Below the pieces are notes generated by a model. That model did not search any database and had not been told where the DNA came from. It saw nothing but the letters and a program-made list of their open reading frames with translations. Positions 23,787-54,871 of a stretch of 58,998 nt of DNA are shown piece by piece. The position numbers and the translations under genes are program-made. Source of the stretch: a virus. Lineage: Duplodnaviria; Caudoviricetes. How positions within the stretch are numbered: the first letter of the stretch is position 1; each line of letters starts with the position of its first letter. The stretch lies in the IMG/VR virus record IMGVR_UViG_3300034682_000453, positions 1 through 58,998 of that record; one strand, written 5' to 3'.

Positions 23787-24182
23787 TTACAGAGTGCCAA
23801 CCACTTCATAGTGAGCGCGGAATGTCACTTTACCGGTAGCGGCAGCACCACCAACGACGAGCGATAATGTAGTGTTATCGACAGACGTCAATGCATCTTC
23901 GATTGGCTTGTAGCCAGAACTGGCCGCCGCACAACTGAGGCCCGCAATTAACGTGGCATCGCCGAGCTTAACGTCAATCGTCACACTCGCGCCCAGTGCC
24001 GCATTAATGTATTCAATACCCGTCAGTTTACATCCAGCCGGGAACTGACGACCCTCGATAACTGTGGCCGCTGCATCTGCTGCAAAAGTAAAACTGAAGC
24101 CAGCCTTTGAGCTATTACCTGCAGAACCTTGATAAACCGCCTTGCCCAGCAGGTTTGATTTTTTGATAGCCATATTTGCCAT
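23787..24182 (-). CDS. Putative capsid decoration protein (131 aa)
   Basis: Small beta-rich Ala/Gly/Thr protein immediately after the major capsid gene. Confidence 0.65.
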   Translation of the reverse strand: MANMAIKKSNLLGKAVYQGSAGNSSKAGFSFTFAADAAATVIEGRQFPAGCKLTGIEYINAALGASVTIDVKLGDATLIAGLSCAAASSGYKPIEDALTSVDNTTLSLVVGGAAATGKVTFRAHYEVVGTL

Positions 24183-24235
24183 ATTCCTTCATCAAAAAGA
24201 AAAGGCCGGACAATGCCGGCCATAACGATTCCCGC

Positions 24236-25444
24236 TTACAGAGTGATTGCGGTATCCAGTGCGATAACGCCGAGGTCATTGATCTTGCCGTACTTATCAG
24301 CAAAGCGGATTTTCTTGCGGCCATTGATCCAGCTGATAGAGATTTCAGTGCTATTGCCGTGATCGGCTGGCTCTTCATGGTAGTTAAACGAACCACCATT
24401 TTGTGCGCCAAAGGCCAATGCCATAGCCTGACCACCTAACAAAATCGCACGGTCGATATTGGTGGCCGCATTTACCTGCGCGATGGTTGCCGCGTTGTCA
24501 TTGTTGGAAATATTGACAACATCACCGGTTTTGAATCGGATCGGCATACCACTACCTTGGCGAACCAAGATGTTGCGCCACATCGCACATTGCCCTTTGA
24601 ACAATGGATGATTGAAACCTTTAGAGCGATTAACTGCGTTGGCCGTCATCGCCTGCCAGTCTTTACCCGCAGTTGATGTGTACCAGTCATTCCATTGGCG
24701 TGGAGTAACATTCAGCACATACCATGGGTCTTCATCCGCCATTTCATCACCAGCGAACTTAACGGGTGATAATGGTGTTGCCAGTTCAGATAAATACAGT
24801 GACAGATTATCCACACTAGCCAGGCTGAACTTATCTGCGGAGTCGATACTTGCAAATGAAGTGGCATCACCACCGAAGAAATGACGTTCATACGTTGGAG
24901 GCAGGACGTCATTCACCATAATTTTTTGATATTCTTCATCATCCGCCAGCGGGACGATAATGCCGGTGCCAGATACTGAGCCGCGCGCGCCAGCCAGATG
25001 AATGGTGGTTAACTGATCATCCAGTTGACCATAGTAAGAGCCGGTTAACAGAGTACGAGCTGTTTTCTTTAAGCCGTGCTTGGTTCGCTGTTGAGACATC
25101 TTGCCGCCGGCATCAACACCATGTCGGCCCTGATTGATTTTCAGTGCGAAGCTGGCCTGAGACAGGTTTTCTAAACGACCCTCCAGTTTCTGATCACCCA
25201 TGGTTGGGCGGCCATTCAACTGATGGAAGATCTGCATATCTACTTCGTCACCAGCCGTTTTGCTCAGATCGGTAACGCGTACAATGGGGGCTTTGTGGCT
25301 TGATTGATTCTTCGCGTTATCCAGCTGTGCTTCTTGTGGCGCTGAATCCGTCATCATGTTTGCAAACGATTTAGTGCGATTTGCTTCGGTAAATAACGCC
25401 GCCTGCATGATCTTGTTAGACATGGCGCTGGCTACTTGTGTCAT
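24236..25444 (-). CDS. Major capsid protein, N4-gp56-like family
   Basis: PIVRVTDLSKTAGDEV, GRPTMGD, HPLFKG, DRAILLGGQA, DLGVIALDTA motifs. Confidence 0.9.
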   Translation of the reverse strand: MTQVASAMSNKIMQAALFTEANRTKSFANMMTDSAPQEAQLDNAKNQSSHKAPIVRVTDLSKTAGDEVDMQIFHQLNGRPTMGDQKLEGRLENLSQASFALKINQGRHGVDAGGKMSQQRTKHGLKKTARTLLTGSYYGQLDDQLTTIHLAGARGSVSGTGIIVPLADDEEYQKIMVNDVLPPTYERHFFGGDATSFASIDSADKFSLASVDNLSLYLSELATPLSPVKFAGDEMADEDPWYVLNVTPRQWNDWYTSTAGKDWQAMTANAVNRSKGFNHPLFKGQCAMWRNILVRQGSGMPIRFKTGDVVNISNNDNAATIAQVNAATNIDRAILLGGQAMALAFGAQNGGSFNYHEEPADHGNSTEISISWINGRKKIRFADKYGKINDLGVIALDTAITL

Positions 25445-25513
25445 AAGTTTTCTCCAGAACTAGAAACGAAAAAACCCGCCGAAGCGGGTTAGTTGAATTT
25501 GATTTAGCGATTA

Positions 25514-26491
25514 CTAATAAGAGGCGTTAAGCAGCTTTTCTATCTCTTCCGTGCTCATCTTGCTCATTTCAGCCTGTATCTGAGATGTTGAAAGACCGGC
25601 GTAATATTCAGGGGTGCCGCGCGTTGCAGTCTCACGAACACTATTACCGATATCTGACGGGCTGTTTGGCAGCGAGTCTTCTTTCGCCTTCTTCTGTGGC
25701 TGTTGAGTTTGAGCCGGGTTAATTTCTGGTTTTACTGGGTCTTTTACATCACCAAATGCAGATGATGTGCGGCGAACCGCCTCCAGAAAACGTTCGCGAA
25801 CAGGCTTTGATTTCCATAATGGATCAGCCATTAACTCAACATCTTTAGCGACTGCATAATCAAGACGGTCTTGATCGACAGCTTTCCATGTAACAAGCTC
25901 TGGAATGCTATCAAAGGCAATTTGCACCTCTGAGCGACCATCATTAACCGGTGCTGCAGCTTTCGACTGTGACTGTTTAAGTGCATCAATCTCGCCAATT
26001 AAGCGTGAGAATGCTTTACCAACGGAAGGGAAGTCTTCCGACAAAGCGGCAAGCTCTTCATCAGACATTCCTTCTGCTTTATCAGCATCCAGATTGATAC
26101 CATGCTTATCCAGTACCGATTGCAACTTGTCTCGCTCAGCCCGAACAACCTTTAACTGCTGATTTTCCTGCTCAAGCGTCGCAGCCTTCGTGCGGGCGTG
26201 TTCAAGAACCTCATACGGGATGGTATGTTTGCCGTCTTTCGACAGGACAACCTTCTCCGGCTCAGCATCATCAGTTTTTTCAGTGCTGGTTGCATCGCTA
26301 ACAACTTCACCTTCTGCCGCTGTCGTCGCGGTGGTTACGACCTTTTCATTCGATTGTGTTGTTTCAACTGGCTTGGTTTCAGTAATGGCTTTATCGCCAA
26401 CTACATCACCTGATTCGTACTGCTCCAGTAATTTATCCAGAGCATCAACATCGCCAGATGCCATTGCTTCGTTAAGTGCCTGTTCGTCCAA
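25514..26491 (-). CDS. Scaffolding protein (325 aa)
   Basis: Acidic low-complexity N-terminus, SKDGKHTIPYEVLE and coiled coil; between portal and capsid genes. Confidence 0.75.
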   Translation of the reverse strand: MDEQALNEAMASGDVDALDKLLEQYESGDVVGDKAITETKPVETTQSNEKVVTTATTAAEGEVVSDATSTEKTDDAEPEKVVLSKDGKHTIPYEVLEHARTKAATLEQENQQLKVVRAERDKLQSVLDKHGINLDADKAEGMSDEELAALSEDFPSVGKAFSRLIGEIDALKQSQSKAAAPVNDGRSEVQIAFDSIPELVTWKAVDQDRLDYAVAKDVELMADPLWKSKPVRERFLEAVRRTSSAFGDVKDPVKPEINPAQTQQPQKKAKEDSLPNSPSDIGNSVRETATRGTPEYYAGLSTSQIQAEMSKMSTEEIEKLLNASY

Positions 26492-26608
26492 TTTTATTAC
26501 CTCGTTGGTTTGGGTTTTTTCGCGCCCTAGCGGGTAAGCACACTTGGTTAAATGCGCTTACCTGCTGAGTCGCAGAAACAAAAAAGCCCCGCGATATGCG
26601 AGGCTCAG

Positions 26609-26681
26609 AAACGAAAACGGCACTCCAGATGGAATGCCGCTATGATGGGAAGATGCTAACGCTGACGGATTAAAAAAGCAA
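26609..26681 (-). promoter_or_regulatory. Late promoter-pause-terminator unit 2
   Basis: TTGCTT-17 bp ending AGCGT-TAGCAT, 5 nt, CATCAT, then CGGCA...TGCCG hairpin and U tract; a second terminator lies at about 26578-26605. Confidence 0.7.
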
Positions 26682-26687
26682 CACTGG

Positions 26688-28835
26688 TTACGCAACTGAA
26701 TCGAGTTGTAATTCAATATTTAGCAGCAATTGGTCCTGCAACTGAGACAACTCGAATTTCATGCGCTCATTTTCAGTAGCAATAGCCTGCATTTCCTGCA
26801 GTAGTTTACCGGTCTGTGCCTGCTTCATGGCATCATCGTATCTCGCACTATCCATCTGTTGCTGAATTTGTGCAGCTTTAGCCTGTTGGCTTTGTGCTTC
26901 CGATTCCAGCTTGGCTAACTTCGCCATCACTTCGCGCATTGCCATTTCTTGTTGCTGTTGGACCTGTTGCTGTTGCTGTTGTGCGGCTTGCTGTTCTTCC
27001 GGTGTCATGTCGGATGGGTCTTTCGGGATCTGCAGTGCGTTGCGAACGCGCTCAATGAACTTATGCTTATTCGGGATATCCATCATTTCAGCAATCAGAT
27101 CGAACACAGCGCCTTGAACTTGCGGCGGCATCTGCCCGGTGACAGCAGTTAATCGCTCTACCAATTGCTGCTTGTAGATGGATGTTGTCTGAATTGGAGC
27201 TAACGCTATGTGTGCCGACAATCTGGTGATGTCGTTAGATAGAGAGCCATCTTCCTGAGTAACATTAATGGCCACTGCCTTGCGGTTGCGAGGGTCTTCC
27301 TTGTTGATGGTGACTTTATAGTTTCGCTTCTGTGCTAAATCATCAATCAGATAACCGAGGATCAACTGACCTAATTGCTCACATGCAAATCGATAATTGT
27401 CATTCACTTCCGCAAGCGTTGTACTCCCCTGCTCAACCAAGCTGGCAATAGCAACACCCGACTGTCCAGTGCTATCTTTCCCAAGGTAAGCCGCATAAAC
27501 CCCCATTGTATCCTGAATGAGTTTCATGCTGTCTTGCATAACAACAAACTGCTGCTGGGCAATATTGAAGTCTTGCTCAACCTTGAATACATCGGAAATA
27601 GATTTGTTGTTTTTACGGTCTGGGTTTAACTCAATTAAGCCGTCTGGGCGTTCCACCTCTTCCAGTAATTTTTCGCGGCTCATATTGGTTGCGTCTTTGT
27701 CCATGATGACGCGCTTGGCTTGCAGCAAGAACGTGAGCTTCAATCGGCGAAAGTTAACTTCATCCTGCGCCGGGATGGCACCGGCAATCAACCCGTATGG
27801 TTCCCCGGTGGAGTCTTTTCGGTAACCCCAGAACGGCACCAGCGGGAACATGCCATAAGGCGCTTTGCATGCGCGATCACCAATTTTGTGCGGACCAATG
27901 AACCAAGCTTCTCGGATTTCTTGAATTAAGCGGTCAGATACAAAGCCCTTGCCCATGCCAAGCAAGGTTGCGTGCAGCACATTGTTTTTATCGTAGGCAA
28001 CACAGCGACCGGATTCCAATTCGAGCACTGGCACCCGTTTATATACCCGGTAATAGATAACCTGCAGCAGAATACGTTTGCGGTCTGTTGATAGCCATTC
28101 CATTTTGCTGCGAGTAAATGCTTTGTAATCAGCAAAGGCACTCACTAAATCTGATTCGACACCATCTGCAACGAACGTATCAGCGAATCCAATCCAATCA
28201 CCAACAGCATAATCAATGATTTCGTCGTAACCAGGCACAACCACCTTAGCTTCATCGACATCCAGCCAGCGCTTGCGCATCAACCACCGGCAATCAGATA
28301 GATCTGCCTCTTTGCTCATCCAATCCCAATAAACCTCATCGCGGTGAACACTGATAATTTTGTAACGTGGCCCGAACGCATCAGCATTACGTGCCACTTC
28401 AATCCAGCCAAGACCGGCAGAGATTTGCTGCTTATAGGCATCCTGCCTTGCTCTATCTAATCGCGCCATGCGGCAGACATCGGAGAATTCGGAGTTTAAT
28501 GCCTCAGCAACCTCGTCGTACTCTTCATCAGGATCATCAGCAATCACCATTAATGCAGTGCGCGTCTTCGCTTCCATACCTAATACAGCGTTGATAGTTG
28601 GCTGTATCAGGTTGTGAATGGTTACCGGCTGACCACGCTCTTTCAGTACCGCTTTAACTTCTGGCGCCAACTGATCACCATCGTAATAAGCCATACAAGT
28701 GCGGGCCAATGATCGCCAGTCTGGCTGTTGATTAATATCATCCATCAGAGATGACAACTCTGTCGGAGTCATCATGCTCTTGCTGGCCTTCGCGTTTTCA
28801 TCTGCGATCAGCTTTGGTTTGAATACTCTTGGCAT
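26688..28835 (-). CDS. Portal protein (715 aa, P22/933W-like with C-terminal helical barrel)
   Basis: YYDGDQL...RGQP...NLIQPTINAVLGME, FPLVPFWGYR, QDEVNFRR, SGVAI; Gln-rich C-terminal coiled coil. Confidence 0.9.
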   Translation of the reverse strand: MPRVFKPKLIADENAKASKSMMTPTELSSLMDDINQQPDWRSLARTCMAYYDGDQLAPEVKAVLKERGQPVTIHNLIQPTINAVLGMEAKTRTALMVIADDPDEEYDEVAEALNSEFSDVCRMARLDRARQDAYKQQISAGLGWIEVARNADAFGPRYKIISVHRDEVYWDWMSKEADLSDCRWLMRKRWLDVDEAKVVVPGYDEIIDYAVGDWIGFADTFVADGVESDLVSAFADYKAFTRSKMEWLSTDRKRILLQVIYYRVYKRVPVLELESGRCVAYDKNNVLHATLLGMGKGFVSDRLIQEIREAWFIGPHKIGDRACKAPYGMFPLVPFWGYRKDSTGEPYGLIAGAIPAQDEVNFRRLKLTFLLQAKRVIMDKDATNMSREKLLEEVERPDGLIELNPDRKNNKSISDVFKVEQDFNIAQQQFVVMQDSMKLIQDTMGVYAAYLGKDSTGQSGVAIASLVEQGSTTLAEVNDNYRFACEQLGQLILGYLIDDLAQKRNYKVTINKEDPRNRKAVAINVTQEDGSLSNDITRLSAHIALAPIQTTSIYKQQLVERLTAVTGQMPPQVQGAVFDLIAEMMDIPNKHKFIERVRNALQIPKDPSDMTPEEQQAAQQQQQQVQQQQEMAMREVMAKLAKLESEAQSQQAKAAQIQQQMDSARYDDAMKQAQTGKLLQEMQAIATENERMKFELSQLQDQLLLNIELQLDSVA

Positions 28836-28836
28836 A

Positions 28837-30495
28837 TTAGTGTGTCATCCAGTGGGAGTTTTTGCGGTTTAGTTCGGTAACTTTTGATGTGGCAGGCATT
28901 CGAGCGCAGATCTCTTGAGCAATCATGTAGCTCATGAGCTGGTCGTCATAACAGCCTTCTTGAGCATTCATACTGCCGGTTGCGCCATACACATAACTTG
29001 TGGCTTCTGATACGGTGCCGATCCAACGGATACCTGACGCTTGGTTGCGCATCAGCGATTTCAAGCCTTCGGTTAGCACAGGTTTCGATTGTCGAGTTGT
29101 TAGCCAGCCGAGGCGTGGCGTTTGGTCGTCACTGTCTCGATCGAGGTATTCTTCGGAGTAAATTCGGCGAACTGGGTAAACTTCTCGCAGTTTTAACAGA
29201 ACAGCGTGGCCGTGGTTGTTTCGTTCTGGGCCGATGAACGCCATGCAATACCACTTGCCGACATGCGCCAGCAGTTGAGCAAACCGATCGGCATCTAAAT
29301 GGCCGTACCAGTGGGCCACTTGTTCTCCGGTTGAGCGCTTGATGATGTCAAAACTTGAGCGGTCACCATGTTCAAGGCCCTCGGCAACGTCACCGCCGAT
29401 CGCGTAGTCTTCTTCTTCATCTGGCAATTCCCAGACAAGCAGCATGTTTTCGAGTGAGCGCTGGCCCTGCTGGTCTAACTGTTCAGGCTTGCGGTACTTC
29501 GCCTTCTCGCCGGTTTCTGGGTTGATGTCATAAACCAGCAAAGGCATAACGCAATCGCCCTCAGCCAGCATTGTCATTATTGGATCAAATACGCGGCGAC
29601 CAGAGGTCAGGAACGCTTCCATTGGTGTAGAAGGAAACTCCTGCTTCATTTCGCCTTTCTGTTCGATTTCTTTGCGGATGTACCACTGACGCTGCTCATC
29701 ATCGAGCGTGGTTTTCATCGCCTTCTCGACTGCTGCAAAATACTCTTCTTGGTCTTTGCTGATCACCAATCCGGTTGCTGGCACTGGTGCGCGATATTTC
29801 GGATCTTGCCACCAAGCAAAGAAATGAGCCTTCCAGTCGAGTTGTGACAGCTCTGCATCTGCATGCTGTAAGCTCAATGCACGCAAAGCCATGTCGTAAA
29901 AGTCACCACCAACGCCTTCCGCTGTACTCTCTATAAATGCGATACAGCCTGGGTGAATAGCGTTGAGCGTACCCGTTCTTACTTCCTTAGCTTTTTCTGG
30001 GTACTTAGCGCAGATCTTTCCGTGTTCTGACACATGCAGGCGCTGAACAGTACCGGAGCGAAACGAAGTGGCTACCTGAATGGAGGAGCCATGCTTGAAA
30101 AGAATGTACCCGCCAGATGCACCACCGCGTCTTGATGCGATAGTAAAGGTAGCTTTCAGCCAAGCAGGCAGGTTATCGAATGGGATCTCAATCTTGGTAC
30201 GGAATATCTCACCAGCGGCAGTTCTGTCTTGAGCAATGATCCCGCACTTGATGTTCTTATTGAAAAGCGCTTCATCCAGAAGGTAGATATCAATCGCTGT
30301 TGAGAATCCAAGCTGCCGCGCTTTTAGAATGATGTTCAGCCACCACATGCAGCGAAACAGCAATTCCTGAGCAGGACGCAATTTAAACTGAACCAAAACG
30401 CCTTGCTCATTCTCTATCTTGTAGAGATTGTTCATGCGCCACCATTTATCGCTCAGATGAGCTTTGATGTAGGCGATGTTTTCCGCTTCGGTCAT
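28837..30495 (-). CDS. terL: Terminase large subunit
   Basis: ILKARQLGFST (Walker A), LHVSE (Walker B), ESTAEG, GGDVAEG...DRSS and GCYDDQLMS nuclease motifs. Confidence 0.95.
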   Translation of the reverse strand: MTEAENIAYIKAHLSDKWWRMNNLYKIENEQGVLVQFKLRPAQELLFRCMWWLNIILKARQLGFSTAIDIYLLDEALFNKNIKCGIIAQDRTAAGEIFRTKIEIPFDNLPAWLKATFTIASRRGGASGGYILFKHGSSIQVATSFRSGTVQRLHVSEHGKICAKYPEKAKEVRTGTLNAIHPGCIAFIESTAEGVGGDFYDMALRALSLQHADAELSQLDWKAHFFAWWQDPKYRAPVPATGLVISKDQEEYFAAVEKAMKTTLDDEQRQWYIRKEIEQKGEMKQEFPSTPMEAFLTSGRRVFDPIMTMLAEGDCVMPLLVYDINPETGEKAKYRKPEQLDQQGQRSLENMLLVWELPDEEEDYAIGGDVAEGLEHGDRSSFDIIKRSTGEQVAHWYGHLDADRFAQLLAHVGKWYCMAFIGPERNNHGHAVLLKLREVYPVRRIYSEEYLDRDSDDQTPRLGWLTTRQSKPVLTEGLKSLMRNQASGIRWIGTVSEATSYVYGATGSMNAQEGCYDDQLMSYMIAQEICARMPATSKVTELNRKNSHWMTH

Positions 30496-30683
30496 TCGAT
30501 GGATTTCATCAATTCCGCATAAAACAGCGTGACCGCCATTAATGAAACCCCTTTGTCTGTTTCGCTTTCATACAACTCTTTGTATTTCGCATTGAGTTGC
30601 TCAATCTTTTCTTGTTCTGACTTCGGCAACCCATAAATGACACCTTTAATCATCAGTATTTGCTGCTCGCATTGCTGTTCCAT
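30492..30683 (-). CDS. Hypothetical protein (63 aa)
   Basis: RBS GGAGA; ATGA overlap with terL. Confidence 0.6.
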   Translation of the reverse strand: MEQQCEQQILMIKGVIYGLPKSEQEKIEQLNAKYKELYESETDKGVSLMAVTLFYAELMKSIE

Positions 30684-30697
30684 GCTTTTCTCCGGGC

Positions 30698-30724
30698 AAT
30701 AAAAAACCCGCCGAAGCGGGTTTG
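30698..30724. terminator. Bidirectional intrinsic terminator
   Basis: AAAAAACCCGC-CGAA-GCGGGTTT; same stem as at about 25470-25490. Confidence 0.75.
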
Positions 30725-30741
30725 TGTAATTTTGTTACTAA

Positions 30742-31182
30742 TTATCCTACTGATAATTCACCAATAGAAAACCCTGATACATCACAAAGTCTTCCGCGCC
30801 ATAATGTTCCCACAGTTGGAACTGCTGTTTGGCCGAAATACTGCTTGGCTTTATCAAGATGAATAAAAATTGTATTAGGCGGAAGTTGGCTGTCAGCATA
30901 GACTTCATCGGATATTTGTTTGTGATAATCAGCTAGGTACTTAGCTAAACTACCATCCTCTGGATTCATCGAGCTGAACTTTTGCTCCATCTTGTCGAAG
31001 AATTCCTTTCCAGATATTAAAACCCCGCTAATAAGTGCGCCACCGATAGTTAACGTAACACCAATACTCACTTTATTAACATTGACCATTCTAACTAACT
31101 CAACGAGAGCCCAATCAGAAACATATGGCGTTTGCTCTTGCGATGATCTTTCATCATTTTCTTCCACTTTTAAATCCGTCAT
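30742..31182 (-). CDS. GvpU-like small protein (146 aa)
   Basis: DWALVELV...IGVTLTIGGALISGVLIS...FIHL...WRGRLCDVSGFSIG pattern; AT-richer than its neighbours. Confidence 0.6.
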   Translation of the reverse strand: MTDLKVEENDERSSQEQTPYVSDWALVELVRMVNVNKVSIGVTLTIGGALISGVLISGKEFFDKMEQKFSSMNPEDGSLAKYLADYHKQISDEVYADSQLPPNTIFIHLDKAKQYFGQTAVPTVGTLWRGRLCDVSGFSIGELSVG

Positions 31183-31228
31183 TGTTTTATCCTGAATTGA
31201 ATGCTTGAGGATTCACACTACACCCTAA

Positions 31229-32122
31229 TCAGAAGCTCATCAATCCACCAGACCCCATCTGTTGCAGGTCTTCTACAATCTCGCCGACCGGTGTCGTGTC
31301 GCCGCCTTGATCACGCTCAAGTCGTGCGGTCTCAGCATCCAGTTTTCGCCGGGCTGATTTAATGCGATCGGTATCCGCAATGATCTTGGGCTCGTTAACA
31401 TCGTCAATTCGAATAGCGCTCAGCGTTCGCGTTAGTGACTCCACACGAGCAACGTTTCTATCAAGCGCCTGTTCTGCTGCGGTTATCTTCCCGTACAGTG
31501 CAATGCGGTCTGGTATTTTAGTGGCGTTGCTTAGGTCTTCATGCATTTTTTGCAGGTTCTTCGTGACGCTGATAACCCTTGCTCTGGTAAAGGTAAGCTC
31601 ATCGTGCAGAGACATTAACTCGGCATCATCGAAGTATTCTATTTGCTGGAAGTATTTAGCGTAACCGCCGTGCTTGGTTGCGTACTGATGCCTCACCGGG
31701 AATGAATGAACTGGATTTGGGTTACCTTCATACTCGCCCTTTACAAATCGCCCACCCTCATCGCGGCCTTTGTATTTCGGACCGGGTTGATTGTCCGATT
31801 CAATTTCTGGTGAATTATTCTCATCATCGGCATCAATATTGTCGTTTGCGCATTGCGCACTTTGCGCAGAGTTATTTTGCGCATTCGATTTGCGCAGTGA
31901 CTTTTGCGCAGTTTGCGCATTTTTCTTGGGCTTCTTGGTGCCGGATTGCGCTGCTGTGCGAGAAGTTTTACTTGTTGTGACTGATTGTGCGCGAGTTTTT
32001 AAATAGCGCCGAGCTGATTGATAGTTGTACCCGTTTTTCTCACACCATTCTTTTGCGCTTACTCCGGTTCTCTCCGCTTCTATTTGGAAGAGTTGGTTGA
32101 TAGCGTTCCAGTCGTTAGCCAT
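31229..32122 (-). CDS. terS: Terminase small subunit
   Basis: N-terminal HTH (KEWCEKNGYNYQSARRY) and ATKHGGYAKY motif; upstream of terL. Confidence 0.8.
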   Translation of the reverse strand: MANDWNAINQLFQIEAERTGVSAKEWCEKNGYNYQSARRYLKTRAQSVTTSKTSRTAAQSGTKKPKKNAQTAQKSLRKSNAQNNSAQSAQCANDNIDADDENNSPEIESDNQPGPKYKGRDEGGRFVKGEYEGNPNPVHSFPVRHQYATKHGGYAKYFQQIEYFDDAELMSLHDELTFTRARVISVTKNLQKMHEDLSNATKIPDRIALYGKITAAEQALDRNVARVESLTRTLSAIRIDDVNEPKIIADTDRIKSARRKLDAETARLERDQGGDTTPVGEIVEDLQQMGSGGLMSF

Positions 32123-44065: not shown

Positions 44066-44087
44066 AAAGTAATCAGTGGTAAGTTTT

Positions 44088-44750
44088 ATGAATAACGAAT
44101 GGTTCAGCGATCGCCTTGTCGGTTTGGCTAATAAGAATGGTCTTAAGCAAGTTGATATCGTCAGGATTACTGGCGCATCAAGAGCGTCTGTTAGTAAGTG
44201 GTTTGCAGGGATTTCTGTTCCAGATTCAACTTACCTGGCGAAGCTATCTGAACATTTCGAAGTGTCAGTAAATTGGTTGCTAACAGGTAAAGACGGATCT
44301 GTAGGTCACGAAATATCTGTACTAAATGAATACAGGCCTCGCAAAGTTCCTTTGTTATCTAATGTTCAGGCGGGCATGTGGAGTGATACTGGATGCACAG
44401 ATCCACTAATGTCATGTTCTGAATGGGTAAATACAACGGAAGATGTTTCTGAAAATGCATTTGCGTTAACAGTTCGTGGTGACAGTATGTATAACCCAGC
44501 TGATCGCAGAAGTCTGATTGATGGCGCGGTCGTTATTGTTGATACCGCATTCAACCCTGACCCATCAGACCTAAACCATAAGATTGTTGTGGCTATGCTT
44601 GACGGAACTAATGAGGCAACAATAAAAGAGTTTGTGAGAGATGGAGCGAGCGTCTATCTAAAACCGCTAAACCCTAGATACCCAATCATCCCCGTTGATA
44701 GCAATTGCAGAATTGTTGCCGTTGCAAAAGAAGGTAAAATTAAACTTTAA
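44088..44750 (+). CDS. cI: CI repressor, HTH plus S24 autopeptidase
   Basis: N-terminal HTH; VQAG cleavage site; VRGDSM catalytic Ser; ATIKE catalytic Lys. Confidence 0.95.
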   Translation: MNNEWFSDRLVGLANKNGLKQVDIVRITGASRASVSKWFAGISVPDSTYLAKLSEHFEVSVNWLLTGKDGSVGHEISVLNEYRPRKVPLLSNVQAGMWSDTGCTDPLMSCSEWVNTTEDVSENAFALTVRGDSMYNPADRRSLIDGAVVIVDTAFNPDPSDLNHKIVVAMLDGTNEATIKEFVRDGASVYLKPLNPRYPIIPVDSNCRIVAVAKEGKIKL

Positions 44751-45797: not shown

Positions 45798-45814
45798 ACC
45801 ATAACACCTATTCA

Positions 45815-45842
45815 AGGCTGCCATTCGGCGGCCTTTTTTATT
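45815..45842 (+). terminator. Terminator ending the cI operon
   Basis: AGGCTGCC-ATTC-GGCGGCCT followed by TTTTT. Confidence 0.75.
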
Positions 45843-45869
45843 CCCCGAAGAAACACGAGTCCGATCACA

Positions 45870-45944
45870 AAAGTAACCTCGAAACAGAAATGTTAACTTT
45901 GCGAAACATTTATTCTTGACTAAAAAGTTTCGATGAATTAACTT
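45870..45944 (+). promoter_or_regulatory. pL-like promoter with three OL-like operators
   Basis: TTGACT (45916)-17 bp-TAACTT (45939); 16-mers at 45870, 45892 and 45927 (inverted) match the OR consensus GTTWA-N5-CGAAAC. Confidence 0.75.
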
Positions 45945-46748
45945 TATCACATCGGCACGTTGTGCCAGCAGCAGCACAGAGTGCGGCGAGAGAACAAACC
46001 GGAGTGAGTCACCCGACGACTCAAGCGATACGCGATGTAATGCAAAGCTGAATCAGAGAGCTTTCCCTTACCCCGCGACAGATTGAAACCTTCCGTCAAA
46101 TCTTCGGATTTCTTGACGCGGGAAAACTCAACCTGAAATCGCCGTTCTTTCCGTATCAATCCGTCGATACGGGACAATCTGGGGAAACGAGACTGATATC
46201 TCAGTGAGCAGCAGTCATGGAATCAGCGAAACCCGATGCGGAGAGTATCGGCCGGAGTTGATATGAACTGTGTAACGTTTGTTTGGTCTCTAAAACTCGC
46301 TTGTAAAAGGCATCAGCGTGGCGAGGTTAATTAATAACGCTGAGCAAAGCCCATTCAATGAGTGGGCAACTCAATCTGTTATCGCTAAGCGCTGCGGATA
46401 AAAATGCGGGGAAAGTCGGCCAGCAGCAACACCGGTTATGGCGCTCGAATACCTCCTTGGATAGCAGATTTAGTTGTGATTGTTTTGGCGGGAGCGGTTT
46501 CCACTCTTGCCAAGCGGAAAGTCAACGAAATGGATTATAGCAATGGGGCCAAGCTCACCCCATCCATGAAACAAGTTGCCAGGAATGCGTCTGGTGTGGC
46601 GCCAGACCTTCCGCCAAAACAATCAGGCATGAAAATAAAACGGACCGGAGATTCCGGTAGATAAATCAACGGAGGGTTTACGCAGATGTGAAAACAAATA
46701 CTCCATCTAAATCGATGGCAGAGGTTAATTAATCCTGGTGCGTAAAAA

Positions 46749-46971
46749 CCTACACGAGCAGTAAAGGCTGCGCCGGAGACGTAACCGGTAGTTGTGATGG
46801 TTGGCGAATTGAATTACCGGCAGCGCAGATTATGCGTCTAGTGGTTGCCAACGTGCGCCATGAATGCTCATGCGGTTTAACTCCGCAGCTTGGGACGATA
46901 TGGATTCACTACTAACCATCACAACCAACCCTACACGAACGGTGAAAGGCCGGGCTGGAGACGTAACCAGC
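46749..46971 (+). repeat. Two copies of a two-hairpin motif (46749-46789 and 46930-46971)
   Basis: CCTACACGA-stem-AAAGG-stem-G-stem-AGACGTAA-stem with compensatory changes between the copies. Confidence 0.75.
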
Positions 46972-46976
46972 ATAAC

Positions 46977-47053
46977 ACCCTGTTAGCTCAGCCGGATAGA
47001 GCAACGACCTTCTAAGTCGTGGGTCGCAGGTTCGAGTCCTGTGCAGGGCGCCA
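46977..47053 (+). tRNA. tRNA-Arg (anticodon TCT)
   Basis: Cloverleaf with D arm GCTCAGCCGGATAGAGC, anticodon arm ACGAC-CTTCTAA-GTCGT, T arm GCAGG-TTCGAGT-CCTGT and encoded CCA; A1-C72 mismatch. Confidence 0.92.
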
Positions 47054-47423
47054 TTTCGAGTACATCGGGGATTGCATTGCGCGTGGCTTGCTGTGCGGTG
47101 AGCTTAAAAAGTTGATGCGTGGTGCGCACACGTCATGCGTTGGGTGAGCGTAATTCGACTTGTCGTTGTTCCGCAGTGCAATCCACCGCTGTATTCGTAG
47201 TACAGCAAACCAACATTAATCAACCAATGTTGCTGTGAATGGAAATGGAAAAATACTGCAACGCGCCAGAATGGACGGACGCGCCAAGGCTCACAGATTA
47301 TGAAAAGGCTTGTAACAGGCCTTATCTGAAAGCGCACTCGTTCACCCAAATTGTTGAGCAGCAATCGAATTAGTGCGTCTTCAGATAGTTATCTATCGTA
47401 AACCAGTTTTATCCCATGTGTTT

Positions 47424-47450
47424 TGCCCGGTTCGTCCGGGCTTCTTTTTG
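47424..47450 (+). terminator. tL1-like intrinsic terminator
   Basis: GCCCGG-TTCGT-CCGGGC then TTCTTTTT. Confidence 0.7.
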
Positions 47451-48300: not shown

Positions 48301-48647
48301 TGAATCACCCAATGCTACAGCAGGTTGCTCGGTCTTTTGATGACCACTTCCGCACCGATTCGATTATTTCTGAATTGGCAGACCAAGCAATGAAAGGCGA
48401 TTACAGCCGCATCAGCCTAGATTCAATTCTTGAGCGTGAAGTGGATAGTGAAGCATTCACCAATCTTACGGTGAAGCTCCGCGAAGCTCACTCGCAAGGT
48501 GCTCACCCTCAAGTGTTGATGGATATGTTCAACGCGCTGATGAAGGTTGACCGACAGCTCATTGAAGGTATCGCAGCTGATTTGGTACCAGCAATCAACG
48601 ATCAGTATATGGAACAGGCCGCAATTCAATTATTGGAGGCATCATGA
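48297..48647 (+). CDS. Hypothetical protein (116 aa)
   Basis: Coupled start/stop with both neighbours. Confidence 0.65.
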   Translation: MMNHPMLQQVARSFDDHFRTDSIISELADQAMKGDYSRISLDSILEREVDSEAFTNLTVKLREAHSQGAHPQVLMDMFNALMKVDRQLIEGIAADLVPAINDQYMEQAAIQLLEAS

Positions 48648-49660
48648 ATGCACAAGTGGAAACCAAAACTCTACTCGATACCCACTCTGAATACACAGCA
48701 AAAATCCTATCTGGTACCAACATTGAAACACTAACCGAAGATGAGCAATGGCACTTCCGCCGCCGGTTAGGTCTTGGTGGTAGTGAAGCTGGAACCATTC
48801 TCGGGTTAAACAAATACGAATCATCATGGGATTTGTGGTCTGTAAAAACAGGTCGATCAGAACCTAAAGATCTGTCTGACAATATGGCTGTAAAAATGGG
48901 CCATATCCTTGAGCCAATCGTCGCTGATCTTTATGCCGAAAAAACACGGAAAACGGTTCGCCGCTCAAACCTCCACCACATCCACAAAGAAAAGCCTTGG
49001 TTGGTCGGTAATCTGGATCGCGTACTGGTTGGTGAAAAGCGTGGTCTTGAGTGCAAAACAGCATCCAGTTTTGCAGCAAAAGGTAATTTCGGAAAAGGCA
49101 ATGTGTACGACCAAGACGGCAATCTCATTGAGATTTGCGACATTGTTCCAGATACCTACCTGATCCAGGTTCAGCATTATATGGCTGTAACTGGTCTGCC
49201 ACTGTTTGATTTGGCTGTGCTGATAGATGGACGTGACTTCCGGATATTCACCATCGCCCGCAATGATGAGCTGATTACCGAAATAGAAGGTCAATTGACT
49301 GACTTCTGGTTTAACAACGTGATCGCTGATATTGCTCCAGTCGGTGAACCAGTTCCAGAGCTGGAAGTCATCAAAGGATCCGCGGTTGAAGCAACCGACG
49401 ACATCACCACGCTGATTGAATCACACAAAGAGTTAGATGAGGCAATCAAAGAACTGAAAGCCGAGCAGGATATTGTTGATACACAAATCAAGCAGTTCAT
49501 CGGTGAAAGCGAAATTTTAGTACATGCCGGTAAGCAACTGGCGTCATATAAACCGGTGATCACCAACCGCTTTGATTCAACCGCATTCAAAAAAGCGGAT
49601 CCAGCTACTTACGCGCAATACACCAAGCCATCAACATCACGCACATTCCGTGTGAGTTAA
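48644..49660 (+). CDS. YqaJ-family (lambda-exonuclease-like) recombination nuclease
   Basis: WHFRRRLGLGGSE, GHILE, GNLDR, LECKT, YLIQVQHYM. Confidence 0.92.
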   Translation: MNAQVETKTLLDTHSEYTAKILSGTNIETLTEDEQWHFRRRLGLGGSEAGTILGLNKYESSWDLWSVKTGRSEPKDLSDNMAVKMGHILEPIVADLYAEKTRKTVRRSNLHHIHKEKPWLVGNLDRVLVGEKRGLECKTASSFAAKGNFGKGNVYDQDGNLIEICDIVPDTYLIQVQHYMAVTGLPLFDLAVLIDGRDFRIFTIARNDELITEIEGQLTDFWFNNVIADIAPVGEPVPELEVIKGSAVEATDDITTLIESHKELDEAIKELKAEQDIVDTQIKQFIGESEILVHAGKQLASYKPVITNRFDSTAFKKADPATYAQYTKPSTSRTFRVS

Positions 49661-49669
49661 GGAATTATC

Positions 49670-50692
49670 ATGGATAACAATGTTGTCGCTGTTTGCGATA
49701 TATACAACGATCTTGCGCCAGAAATGGAGCGACAAGGCATCCAGTCACTACTCCCATCTCACATTACACCAGAAGCGTTTTTGCGTACCGCTGCTGTGGC
49801 CATAGCAAAAGATCCCAATCTTGCCATTGCTGATAAACAGTCGGTGATCATGTCACTAACTCGCTGCGCCACTGATGGACTGATACCAGATGGGAAAGAG
49901 GCCGCCCTGGTGGTTTACAACACTAAGGTAAAGGGCCCTGACAATCGTGACACCTGGATAAAGAAAGCGCAGTACATGCCCATGGTTGATGGCGTTCTTA
50001 AACGTGCCAGACAATCAAATCAGATAGACGTTATCGCTGGTAAAGCTGTTTTTGATGGTGATCAGTTTGATTACTGGATGGACGAGAACGGAGAGCACAT
50101 CAATTACAAGCCAAAATTTATTGGTCGTGGTGAGTTCATTCTGGCGTTTGCTTTTGCAAAACTGAAAACAGGTGAACTGGTTGTTGAGGTGATGCCAAAA
50201 GAAGAAATTGAGCGCGTTCGTGCTGCAAGCAAAGGTGGCGACTCTGGGCCTTGGAAAGACTGGTATGACAGAATGGCAGTTAAGAGTGTTTTGCACCGAT
50301 TGGCGCGTCGATTACCAAACGCTTCTGAATTGATTGCAATGCTTGAGCAAGGCATGGTCATGAATTGGCAGGAACAGCCACAACAACTCAAAGCCCCTGA
50401 TAGCCAACCAAAATCGCAATCAGTTCTTGAAAAAATCCGTGCACAGAAGAAGCCCGTTGCACCGATGATAATCGATGCAGAACCAGCCGCGCAGCAAGAA
50501 GACTACTCCCACGAGTTTTCCATGCAATGCGATGCTCTGGATAACGCAGAAGATTTGGCTCAGTGGACTGAGGCTTACAACATTGCATGGCAATGGGCAT
50601 CTACCAAGCCAAAGAACATTCAAGATGACATTAAGGCTCATGCCGGAGCTGCAAAAAAACGCCTCGTTGAGAAAGAGCAAATCCCCGTTTAG
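49670..50692 (+). CDS. recT: RecT-family single-strand annealing protein
   Basis: DGLIPDGKEAALV, QYMPMVDG, GPWKDWYDRMAVKSVLHRLARRLP. Confidence 0.92.
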   Translation: MDNNVVAVCDIYNDLAPEMERQGIQSLLPSHITPEAFLRTAAVAIAKDPNLAIADKQSVIMSLTRCATDGLIPDGKEAALVVYNTKVKGPDNRDTWIKKAQYMPMVDGVLKRARQSNQIDVIAGKAVFDGDQFDYWMDENGEHINYKPKFIGRGEFILAFAFAKLKTGELVVEVMPKEEIERVRAASKGGDSGPWKDWYDRMAVKSVLHRLARRLPNASELIAMLEQGMVMNWQEQPQQLKAPDSQPKSQSVLEKIRAQKKPVAPMIIDAEPAAQQEDYSHEFSMQCDALDNAEDLAQWTEAYNIAWQWASTKPKNIQDDIKAHAGAAKKRLVEKEQIPV

Positions 50693-50729: not shown

Positions 50730-51818
50730 ATGACAGAACAAGCAAAGACTGAATCAACCTCGCTGGTTGTCATTCAGCCAACCGATGTACGCGCATTTTT
50801 CGTTGAAAGTAAAAACCTCGATTCAATTCTCACCGAAATTGAAACACTGGCCACTAAGTTTGATCCTGACGCTTCAACTGCCAAGGGCCGCAAATTAATT
50901 GGCTCACAAGCCTATGCAGTGGCCAGAACAAAAACATTCATTGATAGTCTTGGTAAAGAGCTGGTTGATGCAGAAAAGGAAATTCCAAAGCGCATCGATG
51001 CAACGCGAAAGAAGGTCCGTGACTTCTGCGATGAGTTGCAAGCCAGAGTGCGTAAGCCGCTAACTGACTACGAAAACGCTGAAAAATCACGAGTTGCAGC
51101 ACTTGATCAACGTATTGCGGCCATTCAATCATTCAGTAGCAAGGTAACTAACGAATCACCATCCGCTGAAATTCAGTTGTGGATTGATGAGTTGGAAGCC
51201 ATAGCAATCGATGCTACTTGGGACGAATACCAAGATCGCGCAGCTGTAGCCAAAGAAGCCGCGAAAGTGAAACTGGAAGCCTTTCTGCAAACTCGCCTGA
51301 CTTGGGAAGCGCAACAGGCTGAAATAGCTCGCCTGAAAGCGGAGCAGGAAGAGAAAGACCGCATTCAGCGTGAGAAAGAAATCGCAGATCAGGCTCGTCA
51401 TGAAGCAGAACAAAAGGCGTTACGGGAAAAGCTGGAATCCGAACAACGCGAACGGTCCGCTAAAGATGCGCTGTTAAAGGCCGAGCAAGACGCCAAAGAC
51501 GCACAGCAGCGACTTGAACAAGAGCGCAAAAATGCGGAAGAACGCCAGCGGTTAGCCGTCCAGCAAGCCGAACAACAGGAACGCCAGCGCCAAATCGATG
51601 AGCAAAACCGCATTGCTCAGGAAGAAGCGCAACGTAAAGCCGAGGCCGCAGCAAAGGCCGCTAACATCGAACACCAAAAGCTGATCAACAACGAAATTTT
51701 GGATGATATGCAGGCAGTCGCTGCTTCAAAGGGATTTCAACTATCCCGAGAAATGGGCGTGGCAATACTAAGCGGCATGGTCTTCGGCAAGGTTCGTCAC
51801 ACCAAGATCCAGTATTAA
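50730..51818 (+). CDS. Long coiled-coil early protein (362 aa)
   Basis: PDASTAKGRKLIGSQAYAVARTKT...EIPKRIDATRK motif common in lambdoid early regions; E/Q/R/A-rich tail. Confidence 0.75.
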   Translation: MTEQAKTESTSLVVIQPTDVRAFFVESKNLDSILTEIETLATKFDPDASTAKGRKLIGSQAYAVARTKTFIDSLGKELVDAEKEIPKRIDATRKKVRDFCDELQARVRKPLTDYENAEKSRVAALDQRIAAIQSFSSKVTNESPSAEIQLWIDELEAIAIDATWDEYQDRAAVAKEAAKVKLEAFLQTRLTWEAQQAEIARLKAEQEEKDRIQREKEIADQARHEAEQKALREKLESEQRERSAKDALLKAEQDAKDAQQRLEQERKNAEERQRLAVQQAEQQERQRQIDEQNRIAQEEAQRKAEAAAKAANIEHQKLINNEILDDMQAVAASKGFQLSREMGVAILSGMVFGKVRHTKIQY

Positions 51819-53598: not shown

Positions 53599-53937
53599 AT
53601 GACTGCTTTTGCTGTATATGGAGTTTTGTTTTCTGAATGTATTAGCGCCGCAAAAAAAAGCACACCTGCCACAAAAAAGATAGACGGAAAAACAATCGAG
53701 CTAACGCAGTCTGAATGGCTTGAAGAGGTAACAAAAAAAGCAGAGGCCGCATTCAAGCGGAATAAGCCAAAGAAGGTATCTCTTCTGTATGACGCCCCAC
53801 AGTTCTGCAAGGAGTTCATTTCGCTTGCTGAAAAAGGCCGAGCCAGAGACCTGCATATTAAAATGGCGAAACAGGAAAATGTTATTCGCAATGGTAAACC
53901 AGCAATTAAAACTTCATGGGTTCCGATGTCTCAATAA
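53599..53937 (+). CDS. Hypothetical protein (112 aa)
   Basis: GGAG RBS. Confidence 0.65.
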   Translation: MTAFAVYGVLFSECISAAKKSTPATKKIDGKTIELTQSEWLEEVTKKAEAAFKRNKPKKVSLLYDAPQFCKEFISLAEKGRARDLHIKMAKQENVIRNGKPAIKTSWVPMSQ

Positions 53938-53953
53938 ATTTTCTGGAGAAAGT

Positions 53954-54871
53954 ATGACCACCGCAATTGACTTGTTCTCCGGGCTCGGCGGATGGAGCAC
54001 CGGCGCAACGATGGCAGGCTGCAAAGTATTATGGGCCGCCAACCACTGGCAAGATGCTGTTGATTGGCATGCTGAAAATCACCCGGGAACAATCCATGTG
54101 TGCCAGGACTTACACCAAGCAGATTGGTCGCAAGTTCCGGCCCATGATTTACTACTGGCCTCCCCATGCTGCCAAGGCCACAGCAAGGCGCGAGGAAGGG
54201 CTAACGGAAACCCACAGCATGATACAAGCCGGTCAACAGCATGGGCGGTTGTGTCGGCTCTGGAGTATCACCGGCCGTATCGGGCTTTAATCGAAAATGT
54301 TCCAGAATTTCTTAAGTGGGCACTATATCCAGCGTGGGAAGCGGCAATGAATGCCCTTGGCTATCAACTGGCTCCGCATGTTGTTGATTGCGCCGATCTT
54401 GGGGTGCCACAAAACAGAGTCCGGTTATTCATCGTCTGCACCAAAAGCAAAGCACCGTTATTTCTCGATCTGCCAAAAATCAAACATAACCCGGCATCGT
54501 CATTTATCAACTTGGATGATGGTCGATGGTCGTTGGTTGATAAGCCAGGGCGATCACCGGCAACACTCCGGCGTATAGAGAATGGTCGTGACCAGTTCGG
54601 CGATACGTTCGTGATGAGTTACTACGGCAACACCCATGTAGGCAGAGACATTAACCGGCCAATCGGAACCATCACAACGAAAGACCGCTGGGCAATCGTC
54701 AAAGGCGATCAGATGCGAATGCTGTCAGCTAACGAAAACATGCTGGCCATGTCCTTCCCTAAATCAACTAAACGCCCCGACAACCACAAATTAACCGTTC
54801 ACATGGCAGGCAATGCAGTTCCACCGATAGCGGCCATGAGAATTATTGAAGCTTTAAACAAAGCTGCATAG
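53954..54871 (+). CDS. C5-cytosine DNA methyltransferase
   Basis: DLFSGLGG, ASPCCQGHS, ENV, QNRVR and GNAV motifs; ATG 53954. Confidence 0.92.
   Translation: MTTAIDLFSGLGGWSTGATMAGCKVLWAANHWQDAVDWHAENHPGTIHVCQDLHQADWSQVPAHDLLLASPCCQGHSKARGRANGNPQHDTSRSTAWAVVSALEYHRPYRALIENVPEFLKWALYPAWEAAMNALGYQLAPHVVDCADLGVPQNRVRLFIVCTKSKAPLFLDLPKIKHNPASSFINLDDGRWSLVDKPGRSPATLRRIENGRDQFGDTFVMSYYGNTHVGRDINRPIGTITTKDRWAIVKGDQMRMLSANENMLAMSFPKSTKRPDNHKLTVHMAGNAVPPIAAMRIIEALNKAA

Follow-up and report, generated by a model that had tools for sequence, protein, structure and literature searches.

A provirus record of 58,998 bases, here called the window (the whole stretch of DNA that was analysed), includes about 1.6 kb without a credible gene between two terminator-like sites (45814-45835 and 47425-47441), and within this interval a short repeat with the appearance of two adjacent hairpins occurs twice, at 46749-46789 and at 46930-46971 on the + strand. 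One copy lies immediately before a stem-closed module and the other immediately before a tRNA. The question raised by this locus is what kind of element is placed so closely ahead of such different units, and what it might do there. In terms of its nature, the window repeat consists of two copies of a structured RNA element that is widespread in temperate phages of beta- and gamma-proteobacteria, and, judging from its sequence surroundings, the element appears to be transcribed within long early operons and at times within late ones. It is a real and widespread phage RNA motif, present in the classic model phage P1 and apparently uncatalogued. Both its structure and its genomic grammar are clear. 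As for its function, we discuss one tentatively preferred reading along with several others that appear less probable.

The two copies in the window

The original prediction had described a two-hairpin repeat with stems that change in a compensatory manner around a conserved leader and conserved loops, and the present results bear this out for the stems, the leader and the H2 loop, both in the two window copies and in the wider family described below. Both copies were located, and the combined motif pattern has exactly two matches on the + strand of the 58,998-base record, with none in a reversed control. A repeat search returned the two halves of the window copies as direct repeats with a spacing of 181-182. 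Between copy 1 and copy 2, one pair of the first hairpin (H1) changes from A:T to G:C and one pair of the second hairpin (H2) changes from C:G to T:A, each of which is compensatory, while an additional H2 pair is G.T in one copy and G:C in the other. The predicted distances to the neighbouring units were also correct, with one base (46790) separating copy 1 from the inverted repeat of the module beginning at 46791 (module B in Table 1) and five bases (46972-46976) separating copy 2 from the tRNA-Arg(TCT).

As short sequences, both copies fold into two hairpins with ordinary energies (z -1.4 and -1.5, with 17/200 and 18/200 shuffles as good). Since the folding energy of the window copies is not unusual, the argument for structure rests on the comparison across phages. 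When folded within a 431-nt context, both hairpins of copy 1 are present, while copy 2 forms H1 and the bases of its H2 are paired elsewhere at minimum energy. The covariance model described below (R1) scores copy 1 at 59.7 bits and copy 2 at 67.3 bits. A truncated form of the motif had been suggested at about 46645 as well. There is indeed a hairpin stretch at this site, but R1 gave it no score, and it is plausible as a degenerate copy and nothing beyond that.

Table 1. Motif copies, cargo modules and neighbouring features of the window (positions counted from its first base)
Feature	Position	Strand	Details
CI/LexA-type repressor gene	44076-44750	+	
Terminator-like hairpin	45814..45835	+	9-bp stem, 6 G:C pairs, T-run; closes the repressor-side genes, array begins after it
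Probable early (PL-type) promoter with operator-like palindromes	45890..45945	+	TTGACT 45916-21, 17-nt spacer, TAACTT 45939-44; putative, assigned by eye
Module A, structured RNA	46477..46625	+	18-nt terminal stem, 94% complementary; z -2.96, 0/200 shuffles as good
Plausible degenerate motif copy	46640-46660	+	ACGG + ACCGG-AGATT-CCGGT + AG; without H1, loop shortened
Motif copy 1	46749-46789	+	leader CCTACACGA 46749-57, ACG 46754-56
Copy 1 H1	46758-71	+	GCAG/CTGC 46758-61/46768-71, loop TAAAGG
Copy 1 H2	46772-89	+	GCCGG/CCGGT 46772-76/46785-89, loop AGACGTAA
Module B, structured RNA	46791..46925	+	12-14-bp terminal stem; z -3.29, 1/200 shuffles as good
Motif copy 2	46930-46971	+	leader ACG 46935-37
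Copy 2 H1	46940-52	+	CGG/CCG 46940-42/46950-52, loop TGAAAGG, then linker G
Copy 2 H2	46954-71	+	GCTGG/CCAGC 46954-58/46967-71, loop identical to copy 1
tRNA-Arg (anticodon TCT), cargo of copy 2	46977..47053	+	ARAGORN; Rfam tRNA 54.5 bits
Module C, structured RNA	47069..47184	+	13-nt terminal stem; z -4.32, 0/200 shuffles as good
Terminator-like hairpin	47425..47441	+	array end, before the early genes
RecE gene	48644-49660	+	
RecT gene	49670-50692	+	

Anatomy, covariation and a possible pseudoknot

When 82 distinct instances of the motif were parsed, a common layout of about 41 nt was evident, which consists of a 5' ACG, a variable hairpin (H1), zero to one nucleotide, a near-invariant hairpin (H2; GCCGG-AGACGUAA/C-CCGGC) and then an A. 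The four bases before H1 are CACG in 29, TACG in 15 and GACG in 9 of the 82, with a further 14 instances, the subfamily containing the window, having ACGA, CGAA or ACGG at this position. ACG is found within the four bases before H1 in 67/82, and its A is replaced by G, which would still pair with U, in 5 more. H1 is composed of 3-7 bp and occurs in 25 distinct stem sequences, and its loops range from 3-9 nt and are frequently GNRA tetraloops closed by U.G. The base after H2 is A in 70/82 and the sequence ACC is found there in 23/82.

Both helices are supported by compensatory changes across independent sequences. In the model alignment, 99.6% of cells pair compared to 92.1% in shuffles (none of the 500 attains the covariation score observed) and no more than 49% in slid-partner controls, although these figures are favoured by an alignment that was fitted to the structure. 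Of the three H1 pairs in the model, two undergo double changes, one in 11 sequences and the other in 18. For H2, conservation within the 82-instance set had been imposed by the search pattern, so we performed a scan that forbade C:G at the third H2 pair. The full motif was present at 18 of the resulting 20 loci, the other two being chance matches without a leader, and the third pair is Watson-Crick in all 18 (U:A in 14, G:C in 3 and A:U in 1).

When a change was forced at the C or the U of the loop, the scans yielded 11 and 69 stretches. By eye, the ACG, H1, H2 and A layout is present in none of them, with L352 and L337 being borderline. The 8-nt loop of H2 is effectively invariant and its CGU is constant in true instances. 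This CGU probably pairs with the leader ACG to form a 3-bp H-type pseudoknot with H1 in loop 1. By geometric reasoning, such a pairing is plausible and sterically reasonable, with AGA at the junction and AA serving as loop 3. Covariation lends the pseudoknot no support, as the H2 loop never varies and the ACG:CGU pairing is consequently beyond its reach. A wobble-pair test of the strand was neutral, in that allowing G.U added 10 pairs in 9/72 and allowing A.C added 16 pairs in 12/72. Therefore, the RNA strand was assigned solely from the co-orientation of the motif with tRNAs and genes.

Distribution among phages and bacterial genomes

The first pattern scan, which employed the leader and the loop, returned 18 viral stretches, of which 4 were true copies from four other proviruses (one of them located 5 nt before a tRNA-Pro), as well as 62 stretches from bacterial genomes, all 62 of which were chance-like. 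When BLAST was performed with one related copy, matches were obtained in P1, P7, D6, RCS47, SJ46 and the Bordetella phages PHB04 and IFTN2, together with 543 of 5,426 complete E. coli genomes, and 550 of the 559 places in the latter are on plasmids. According to the annotation, the P1 copy belongs to the leader of the C1-controlled ban operon, where 4 nt lie between H2 and tRNA-Asn, and the same distance separates H2 from a tRNA-Arg in two P1-like plasmids. In Bordetella phage IFTN2, H2 ends 5 nt before a tRNA-Arg located upstream of the exonuclease VIII gene. With P1 and its plasmid relatives, matches to the motif are present in about one in ten complete E. coli genomes. The motif is also found in numerous proviruses from Pseudomonas, Bordetella and allied hosts, and it is listed in no RNA library.

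A covariance model and a survey of genomic contexts had been proposed along with the original prediction, and the survey revealed tRNAs and genes downstream of the motif. Model R1 was built from 11 seed copies, which it clearly separates from other sequence, scoring them at 59.7-75.6 bits versus 20 bits for the next best match in 214 kb. A pattern limited to the H2 core matched at least 119 stretches of IMG/VR, and nearly all of these carry the full motif among the matches listed. The same pattern matched at least 120 stretches of bacterial genomes, for which the matches listed are mostly GC-rich actinomycete coding sequence and about 8 carry the full motif. A leader-and-H1-loop filter had flagged four of these genome matches (L226, L243, L274 and L325), from which L226 was dropped by eye as coding-like, whereas L212, L216, L242, L283 and L290 were added by eye to give the 8 used for later counts.

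Other searches were less productive. BLAST of the GC-rich variants L201 and L094 yielded no match in named phages, and the L104 variant yielded none in E. coli genomes. A covariance-model search of 151 genomes from one family recovered the seed genome only, which is a weak result, given that the filter scored 39 of the thousands of candidates per genome. In the literature, the full text of 33 papers contains the loop string, and in the 15 of them listed it occurs only as primers on unrelated subjects. Nothing relevant was found on the P1 ban operon and its tRNA. No description of the motif was encountered in the searched literature, although one could exist elsewhere.

Units that follow the motif

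The motif had been predicted to stand directly 5' of cargo RNAs, which is correct in part. Among the 135 instances examined, a same-strand tRNA is located 4-6 nt after H2 in 52. The 135 instances represent 90 distinct contexts, and those adjacent to a tRNA represent 13, window copy 2 included. The tRNAs following the motif are Asn-GUU, Arg-UCU and Pro-UGG, and at one further locus a tRNA with the anticodon UUA is found 5 nt after it. However, the motif also precedes the ribosome-binding sites of protein genes, so its cargo is not RNA alone. Most of the contexts lacking a tRNA contain an ORF with a Shine-Dalgarno-like sequence, the start of which is located approximately 10-57 nt past H2 in the convincing cases. 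Eight of ten downstream proteins tested match a PHROG, including RecT, phrog_1376, minor tail protein, HNH endonuclease and methyltransferase-like groups; a phrog_1376 protein is also encoded within the window itself (50730-51818). Non-coding modules are preceded by the motif as well.

On the upstream side, the distance from the end of a same-strand frame to the leader has a median of 84 nt, with many such frames in GC-rich DNA probably being spurious. Terminator-like sites were found within 200 nt upstream in 4/85 contexts and within 300 nt downstream in 9/85, and this rarity of nearby terminator-like sites places the motif inside operons.

A joint between exchangeable modules

The motif marks the point where interchangeable gene modules join. 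This is apparent when the 40 nt on each side of H2 are clustered for 99 contexts: 9 of 51 upstream clusters are joined to at least two unrelated downstream sequences directly after H2, one of them having five to seven downstream partners, and 4 of 68 downstream clusters are joined to at least two upstream ones. Furthermore, the loci L007 and L021 are collinear through the motif and are set apart by an insertion of RNA modules, about 450 nt in total, 9 nt after it. Metagenome contigs aligned to the window at 90% likeness exhibit joints at corresponding places, although joints from contigs alone are weak evidence. One contig has 134 other letters in place of 46372-46740, with a border of unlike sequence at 46741, and another is unlike the window from 46788 on. 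A third contig skips 47054-47177, creating a joint from 47053 to 47178 in which the gap may hold other letters.

Comparison with known RNAs and sites

A match to a known Rfam family of unrelated function had been named beforehand as evidence against the original prediction, and no family matches the motif. Across the whole window, tRNA alone reaches the gathering score of its model in Rfam 15. Between 46000 and 47700, a search at E up to 10 returned the tRNA together with chance-level matches, none of which are on the motif or belong to a ribozyme family, and at four related loci the tRNA was accompanied by sub-threshold matches elsewhere, leaving the motif unmatched.

The likeness to the HK022 put RNAs that had been suggested earlier holds for the two adjacent hairpins, but it is a resemblance only. 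Both putL/putR and the motif have neighbouring hairpins in early transcripts of temperate phages, and both would act in cis without a dedicated phage protein. The put RNAs are V-shaped structures of approximately 70-74 nt that contain a triplex and a pair of long stem-loops (PMC9378689), whereas the motif is 41-42 nt with stems of 3-7 bp and 5 bp. In addition, put follows PL/PR, while the motif is located at unit boundaries and 4-6 nt before tRNAs. Model R1 with its filters off found nothing in HK022 24000-32000 (best E 6), and membership of the motif in put was rejected on the basis of its size, its unlike stems and this missing match. A lambda-type nut site was rejected too, as R1 found nothing in lambda (best E 0.36, inside gene J) and left nutL and nutR unmatched, the H1 loops are 3-9 nt, and the boxA consensus was not seen in the leader.

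Several other systems share part of the motif's features. Intercistronic RNase III hairpins, such as those of the T7 early region and the dicF precursor of prophage Qin, similarly lie between the units of a phage polycistronic transcript, where they define ends and release small RNAs and mRNAs. RNase III sites are irregular duplexes of about 20 bp with no invariant loops, whereas the stacked helices of the motif total about 9 bp and its loop is invariant; the terminal stems of modules A-C are more alike to RNase III substrates than is the motif. Small phage ribozymes include pistol, hatchet, twister and the HDV-like "theta" ribozymes found beside phage tRNAs. With these, the motif shares a similar size, a pseudoknot (as proposed) plus a variable peripheral stem, an intergenic location and an adjacency to tRNAs, but theta ribozymes lie 3' of tRNAs and the motif lies 5' of them. 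H-type pseudoknots are found at RNA ends in the T4 gene 32 leader and in the tRNA-like acceptor arm of plant viruses. As in the fold proposed here, these have a 5' strand that enters a hairpin loop, an A-rich third loop and an unstructured tract downstream, and many motif copies have an A or ACC(A) after the last helix. Unlike such end pseudoknots, the motif would carry a hairpin in loop 1 and lies internal to transcripts, and it shows no connection with gp32-type autoregulation or aminoacylation. Integron attC sites conserve structure more than sequence, and they have in common with the motif a repeat-cargo-repeat grammar, conservation that is partly of structure, and an exchange of cargo at the element. 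The motif differs in having no integrase, in an invariant part that is a fixed-loop hairpin co-oriented with transcription, and in a cargo that includes tRNAs and non-coding RNAs.

A number of further candidates were set aside. Comparison of the loop with 16S rRNA 1494-1501 gave 8/9 matching bases, which we estimate to be at chance level. Guanidine-II/III riboswitches, a CsrA site, the RfaH ops element, a TadA or anticodon-arm mimic and a frameshift or readthrough stimulator were all dropped as poor fits. The UG27 RNA-array system (bioRxiv 10.64898/2026.09.22.753630) was rejected because the nine smaller ORFs tested around the array have no Pfam match and hence no reverse-transcriptase domain.

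Proposed function and competing explanations

The reading that we favour, with somewhat less than even confidence, is that the motif is a post-transcriptional boundary element involved in processing, end protection or folding insulation, the invariant core of which also serves as a recombination joint. As such, it would be a cis-acting punctuation mark that is active after transcription and folds autonomously, its fold probably being locked by the ACG:CGU pseudoknot. Placed at the 5' edge of each unit, be it a tRNA, a small RNA closed by a stem or a gene's ribosome-binding site, the motif could define or protect RNA ends as host nucleases cut the polycistronic transcript. Presumably, these host factors would include RNase P at the tRNA, with RNase E-type cuts occurring in single-stranded linkers. 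The folding or translation of the downstream unit would likewise be shielded from upstream sequence. The 18-nt core is identical in many phages, which is why it could double as a homology patch for cargo exchange. A boundary element is favoured by the tight coupling of the motif to the start of the next unit and its position inside operons as well as by the single-stranded linkers on both sides and the precedent of processed phage leaders. Conversely, a signal for host nucleases should not need an invariant 8-nt loop, few full copies (about 8) are found among the bacterial-genome matches listed, and a processing signal looks redundant at tRNAs, where RNase P alone would suffice. The invariant loop, which implies a conserved partner, and the paucity of full copies in the bacterial-genome scan are what keep the competing explanations alive.

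Among these, an undescribed class of small self-cleaving ribozyme would assign the ACG, H2 and its loop to a pseudoknotted core with a dispensable H1, and cleavage at the edge of the motif would free the cargo. A length of about 41 nt with a variable peripheral hairpin and strictly invariant unpaired bases is typical of small-ribozyme conservation, which in this case ends sharply at both motif edges, and the phage-intergenic locations beside tRNAs and assorted genes are fitting as well. No Rfam ribozyme family matches, so the class would be a new one. However, the prior for a new ribozyme class is low, neither edge has an evident conserved dinucleotide, and a core made of a 5-bp helix and a 3-bp pseudoknot would be very small; we consider this explanation unlikely. 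A similarly small probability is attached to the proposal of a new and very small RNA class, either a self-cleaving ribozyme of about 41 nt or a tRNA-acceptor mimic that recruits RNase P/RNase Z, which would serve as a portable cassette punctuation that frees the downstream cargo and has its core as the swap joint. Alternatively, the motif may act during transcription as a put-like RNA that binds the transcribing polymerase, or as a block to Rho, such that polymerase crosses a long untranslated leader containing terminators. This could account for the occurrence of the motif mainly in phage sequence and for early-operon leaders with a terminator before the genes (47425-47441 in the window and a hairpin about 50 nt past the motif in L007), and its two adjacent hairpins are reminiscent of put (PMC9378689). 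Its improbability stems from the greater length and long stems of put and the lack of R1 matches in HK022 24-32 kb or lambda. In addition, the motif keeps close to where the following unit begins (4-6 nt ahead of tRNAs), a placement that such a function does not call for; just 9/85 contexts have a terminator-like site in the next 300 nt; and mid-operon copies precede minor tail protein genes.

It is also conceivable, albeit quite unlikely, that the motif regulates the downstream unit as an aptamer, binding either a conserved protein or a small ligand, or else that it is a released RNA of about 45 nt that titrates a host factor in trans. The invariant loop and purine-rich junction would suit a binding pocket located just upstream of ribosome-binding sites, and an RNase P cut at tRNAs would release a leader fragment that has the motif at its 3' end. 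Yet, any expression platform would be inconsistent, since start-codon distances vary widely and tRNA cargo has none; moreover, no Rfam riboswitch matches and no single phage protein can be common to P1, lambda-like and Bordetella phages. The mosaic joints located exactly at H2 raise the further prospect of a recombination or insertion site for cargo cassettes that operates at the DNA or ssDNA level with attC-like logic, making transcription incidental. The 18 bp of H2 form a near-palindrome around an asymmetric 8-bp core, H1 keeps structure rather than sequence, as attC does, and the wobble-pair test exhibits no preference for a + strand RNA. A dedicated site of this kind nevertheless seems rather improbable. 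The motif always points the same way as the tRNA or gene downstream of it, arms of 5 bp are short for known recombinases, and the carriers (P1, lambda-like and Bordetella phages) appear to have no recombinase gene in common. Furthermore, homologous exchange at any conserved patch of 18-40 nt explains the joints without a dedicated enzyme.

The non-coding leader arrays of temperate phages are poorly understood, and the motif provides a concrete unit of them and shows at which points phages exchange their tRNAs, small RNAs and accessory genes. Should it direct processing or self-cleave, it would offer synthetic operons a compact natural insulator; should it modify RNA polymerase, it would constitute a second system of the put kind, and one that is much more widely distributed.

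The array and its cargo modules

The two window copies are situated approximately 800-1000 nt past the putative early promoter and 450-650 nt ahead of the terminator at 47425. This promoter candidate was not reported by a promoter consensus scan, and BLAST of the presumed promoter segment (45840-46470) yielded no match in named phages. For the window region, the tRNA was the sole BLAST match to named phages. Module B is closed by a perfect 12-bp inverted repeat (46791-46802/46914-46925; 100% complementary). Farther downstream, the ORF at 53789-54871 has a Pfam match to C-5 cytosine DNA methylase. Pieces of the cargo modules recur in unrelated phages, and one such piece of 103 nt has 88% identity in Dickeya Limestone-like phages, where it lies in an unannotated gap near a tRNA.

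Cargo modules and related sequences

Among the units that directly follow the two-hairpin motif are stem-closed RNA modules, and the three modules of the window, termed A, B and C, share a common architecture. Each measures approximately 115-150 nt, has ends that pair in a terminal stem of 12-18 bp and folds better than its shuffled counterparts. No Rfam family matched any of the three, and the modules look like excisable small RNAs of the RNase III type. An enterobacterial provirus (L021) and virulent Limestone-like phages of Dickeya share a 103-nt piece of cargo-module sequence, with 19 Dickeya phage records matching. In Limestone1 (L084), this piece is located within a 1.25-kb unannotated gap, near a tRNA-Met. 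In P1 (L087), a second, degenerate motif copy stands ahead of a long-stem module. This copy lacks the ACG leader, carries the H2 loop AACCGTAA and lies downstream of a tRNA-Thr, on the strand opposite to the annotated plp gene.

Coordinates of modules, motif copies and neighbouring elements (bits, score with covariance model R1 of the motif)
Feature	Locus	Position	Details
Module A	window	46477-46625	stem within 12-18 bp; z -3.0 vs shuffles
Module B	window	46791-46925	stem within 12-18 bp; z -3.3 vs shuffles
Module C	window	47069-47184	stem within 12-18 bp; z -4.3 vs shuffles
103-nt piece	L021; L084	2465-2567 (reverse strand); 1501-1603	88% identity
Degenerate second motif copy	L087; also L089, L090	2884-2915 (L087)	20 bits
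tmRNA-like gene	L088	456-827	tag ANDDYIRAAA
Tad2 family gene	L089	3305-3880	
Candidate early promoter	window	45890-45945	TTGACT, 17-nt spacer, TAACTT
GGTGAATGC + hairpin	L012, L020, L021, L091; L087	2990-3300 (L087)	e.g. GCGCA-GGCTGA-TGCGC
GAGGTTAATTAAT direct repeat	window	46323-46335; 46721-46733	spacing 398 nt
AATCGAGTT(C/T)TGACCAA	L007	~10248, 10440, 10818	three copies

Genes and repeats surrounding the motif

In an IMG/VR contig (L431), ARAGORN predicted a tRNA 5 nt after the motif. Its anticodon, TTA, would decode UAA stop codons, which suggests a suppressor tRNA in this phage. The same program predicted a tmRNA-like gene in Bordetella phage PHB04 (L088); this gene shares an unannotated region with the motif, which it precedes by approximately 650 nt. 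In E. coli plasmid pHX138.33gt_1 (L089), the annotation directly downstream of the motif-tRNA array lists a gene for a Thoeris anti-defence protein of the Tad2 family, suggesting that the array lies within an anti-defence region.

Within the window, the candidate promoter is surrounded by operator-like palindromes (ATGTT..AACAT and AAAGTT..AACTTT) and is probably a repressor-controlled early promoter driving the non-coding array; a consensus promoter scan did not call this site. The downstream copy of the GAGGTTAATTAAT repeat precedes motif copy 1 by 15 nt. Besides the two-hairpin motif, a second element, consisting of GGTGAATGC followed by a hairpin, recurs among unrelated phages in their leader arrays and mostly adjoins a long stem. 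In the motif-bearing locus L007, each copy of AATCGAGTT(C/T)TGACCAA follows a gene end or terminator and precedes the next gene, and the sequence may be a promoter or regulatory box.
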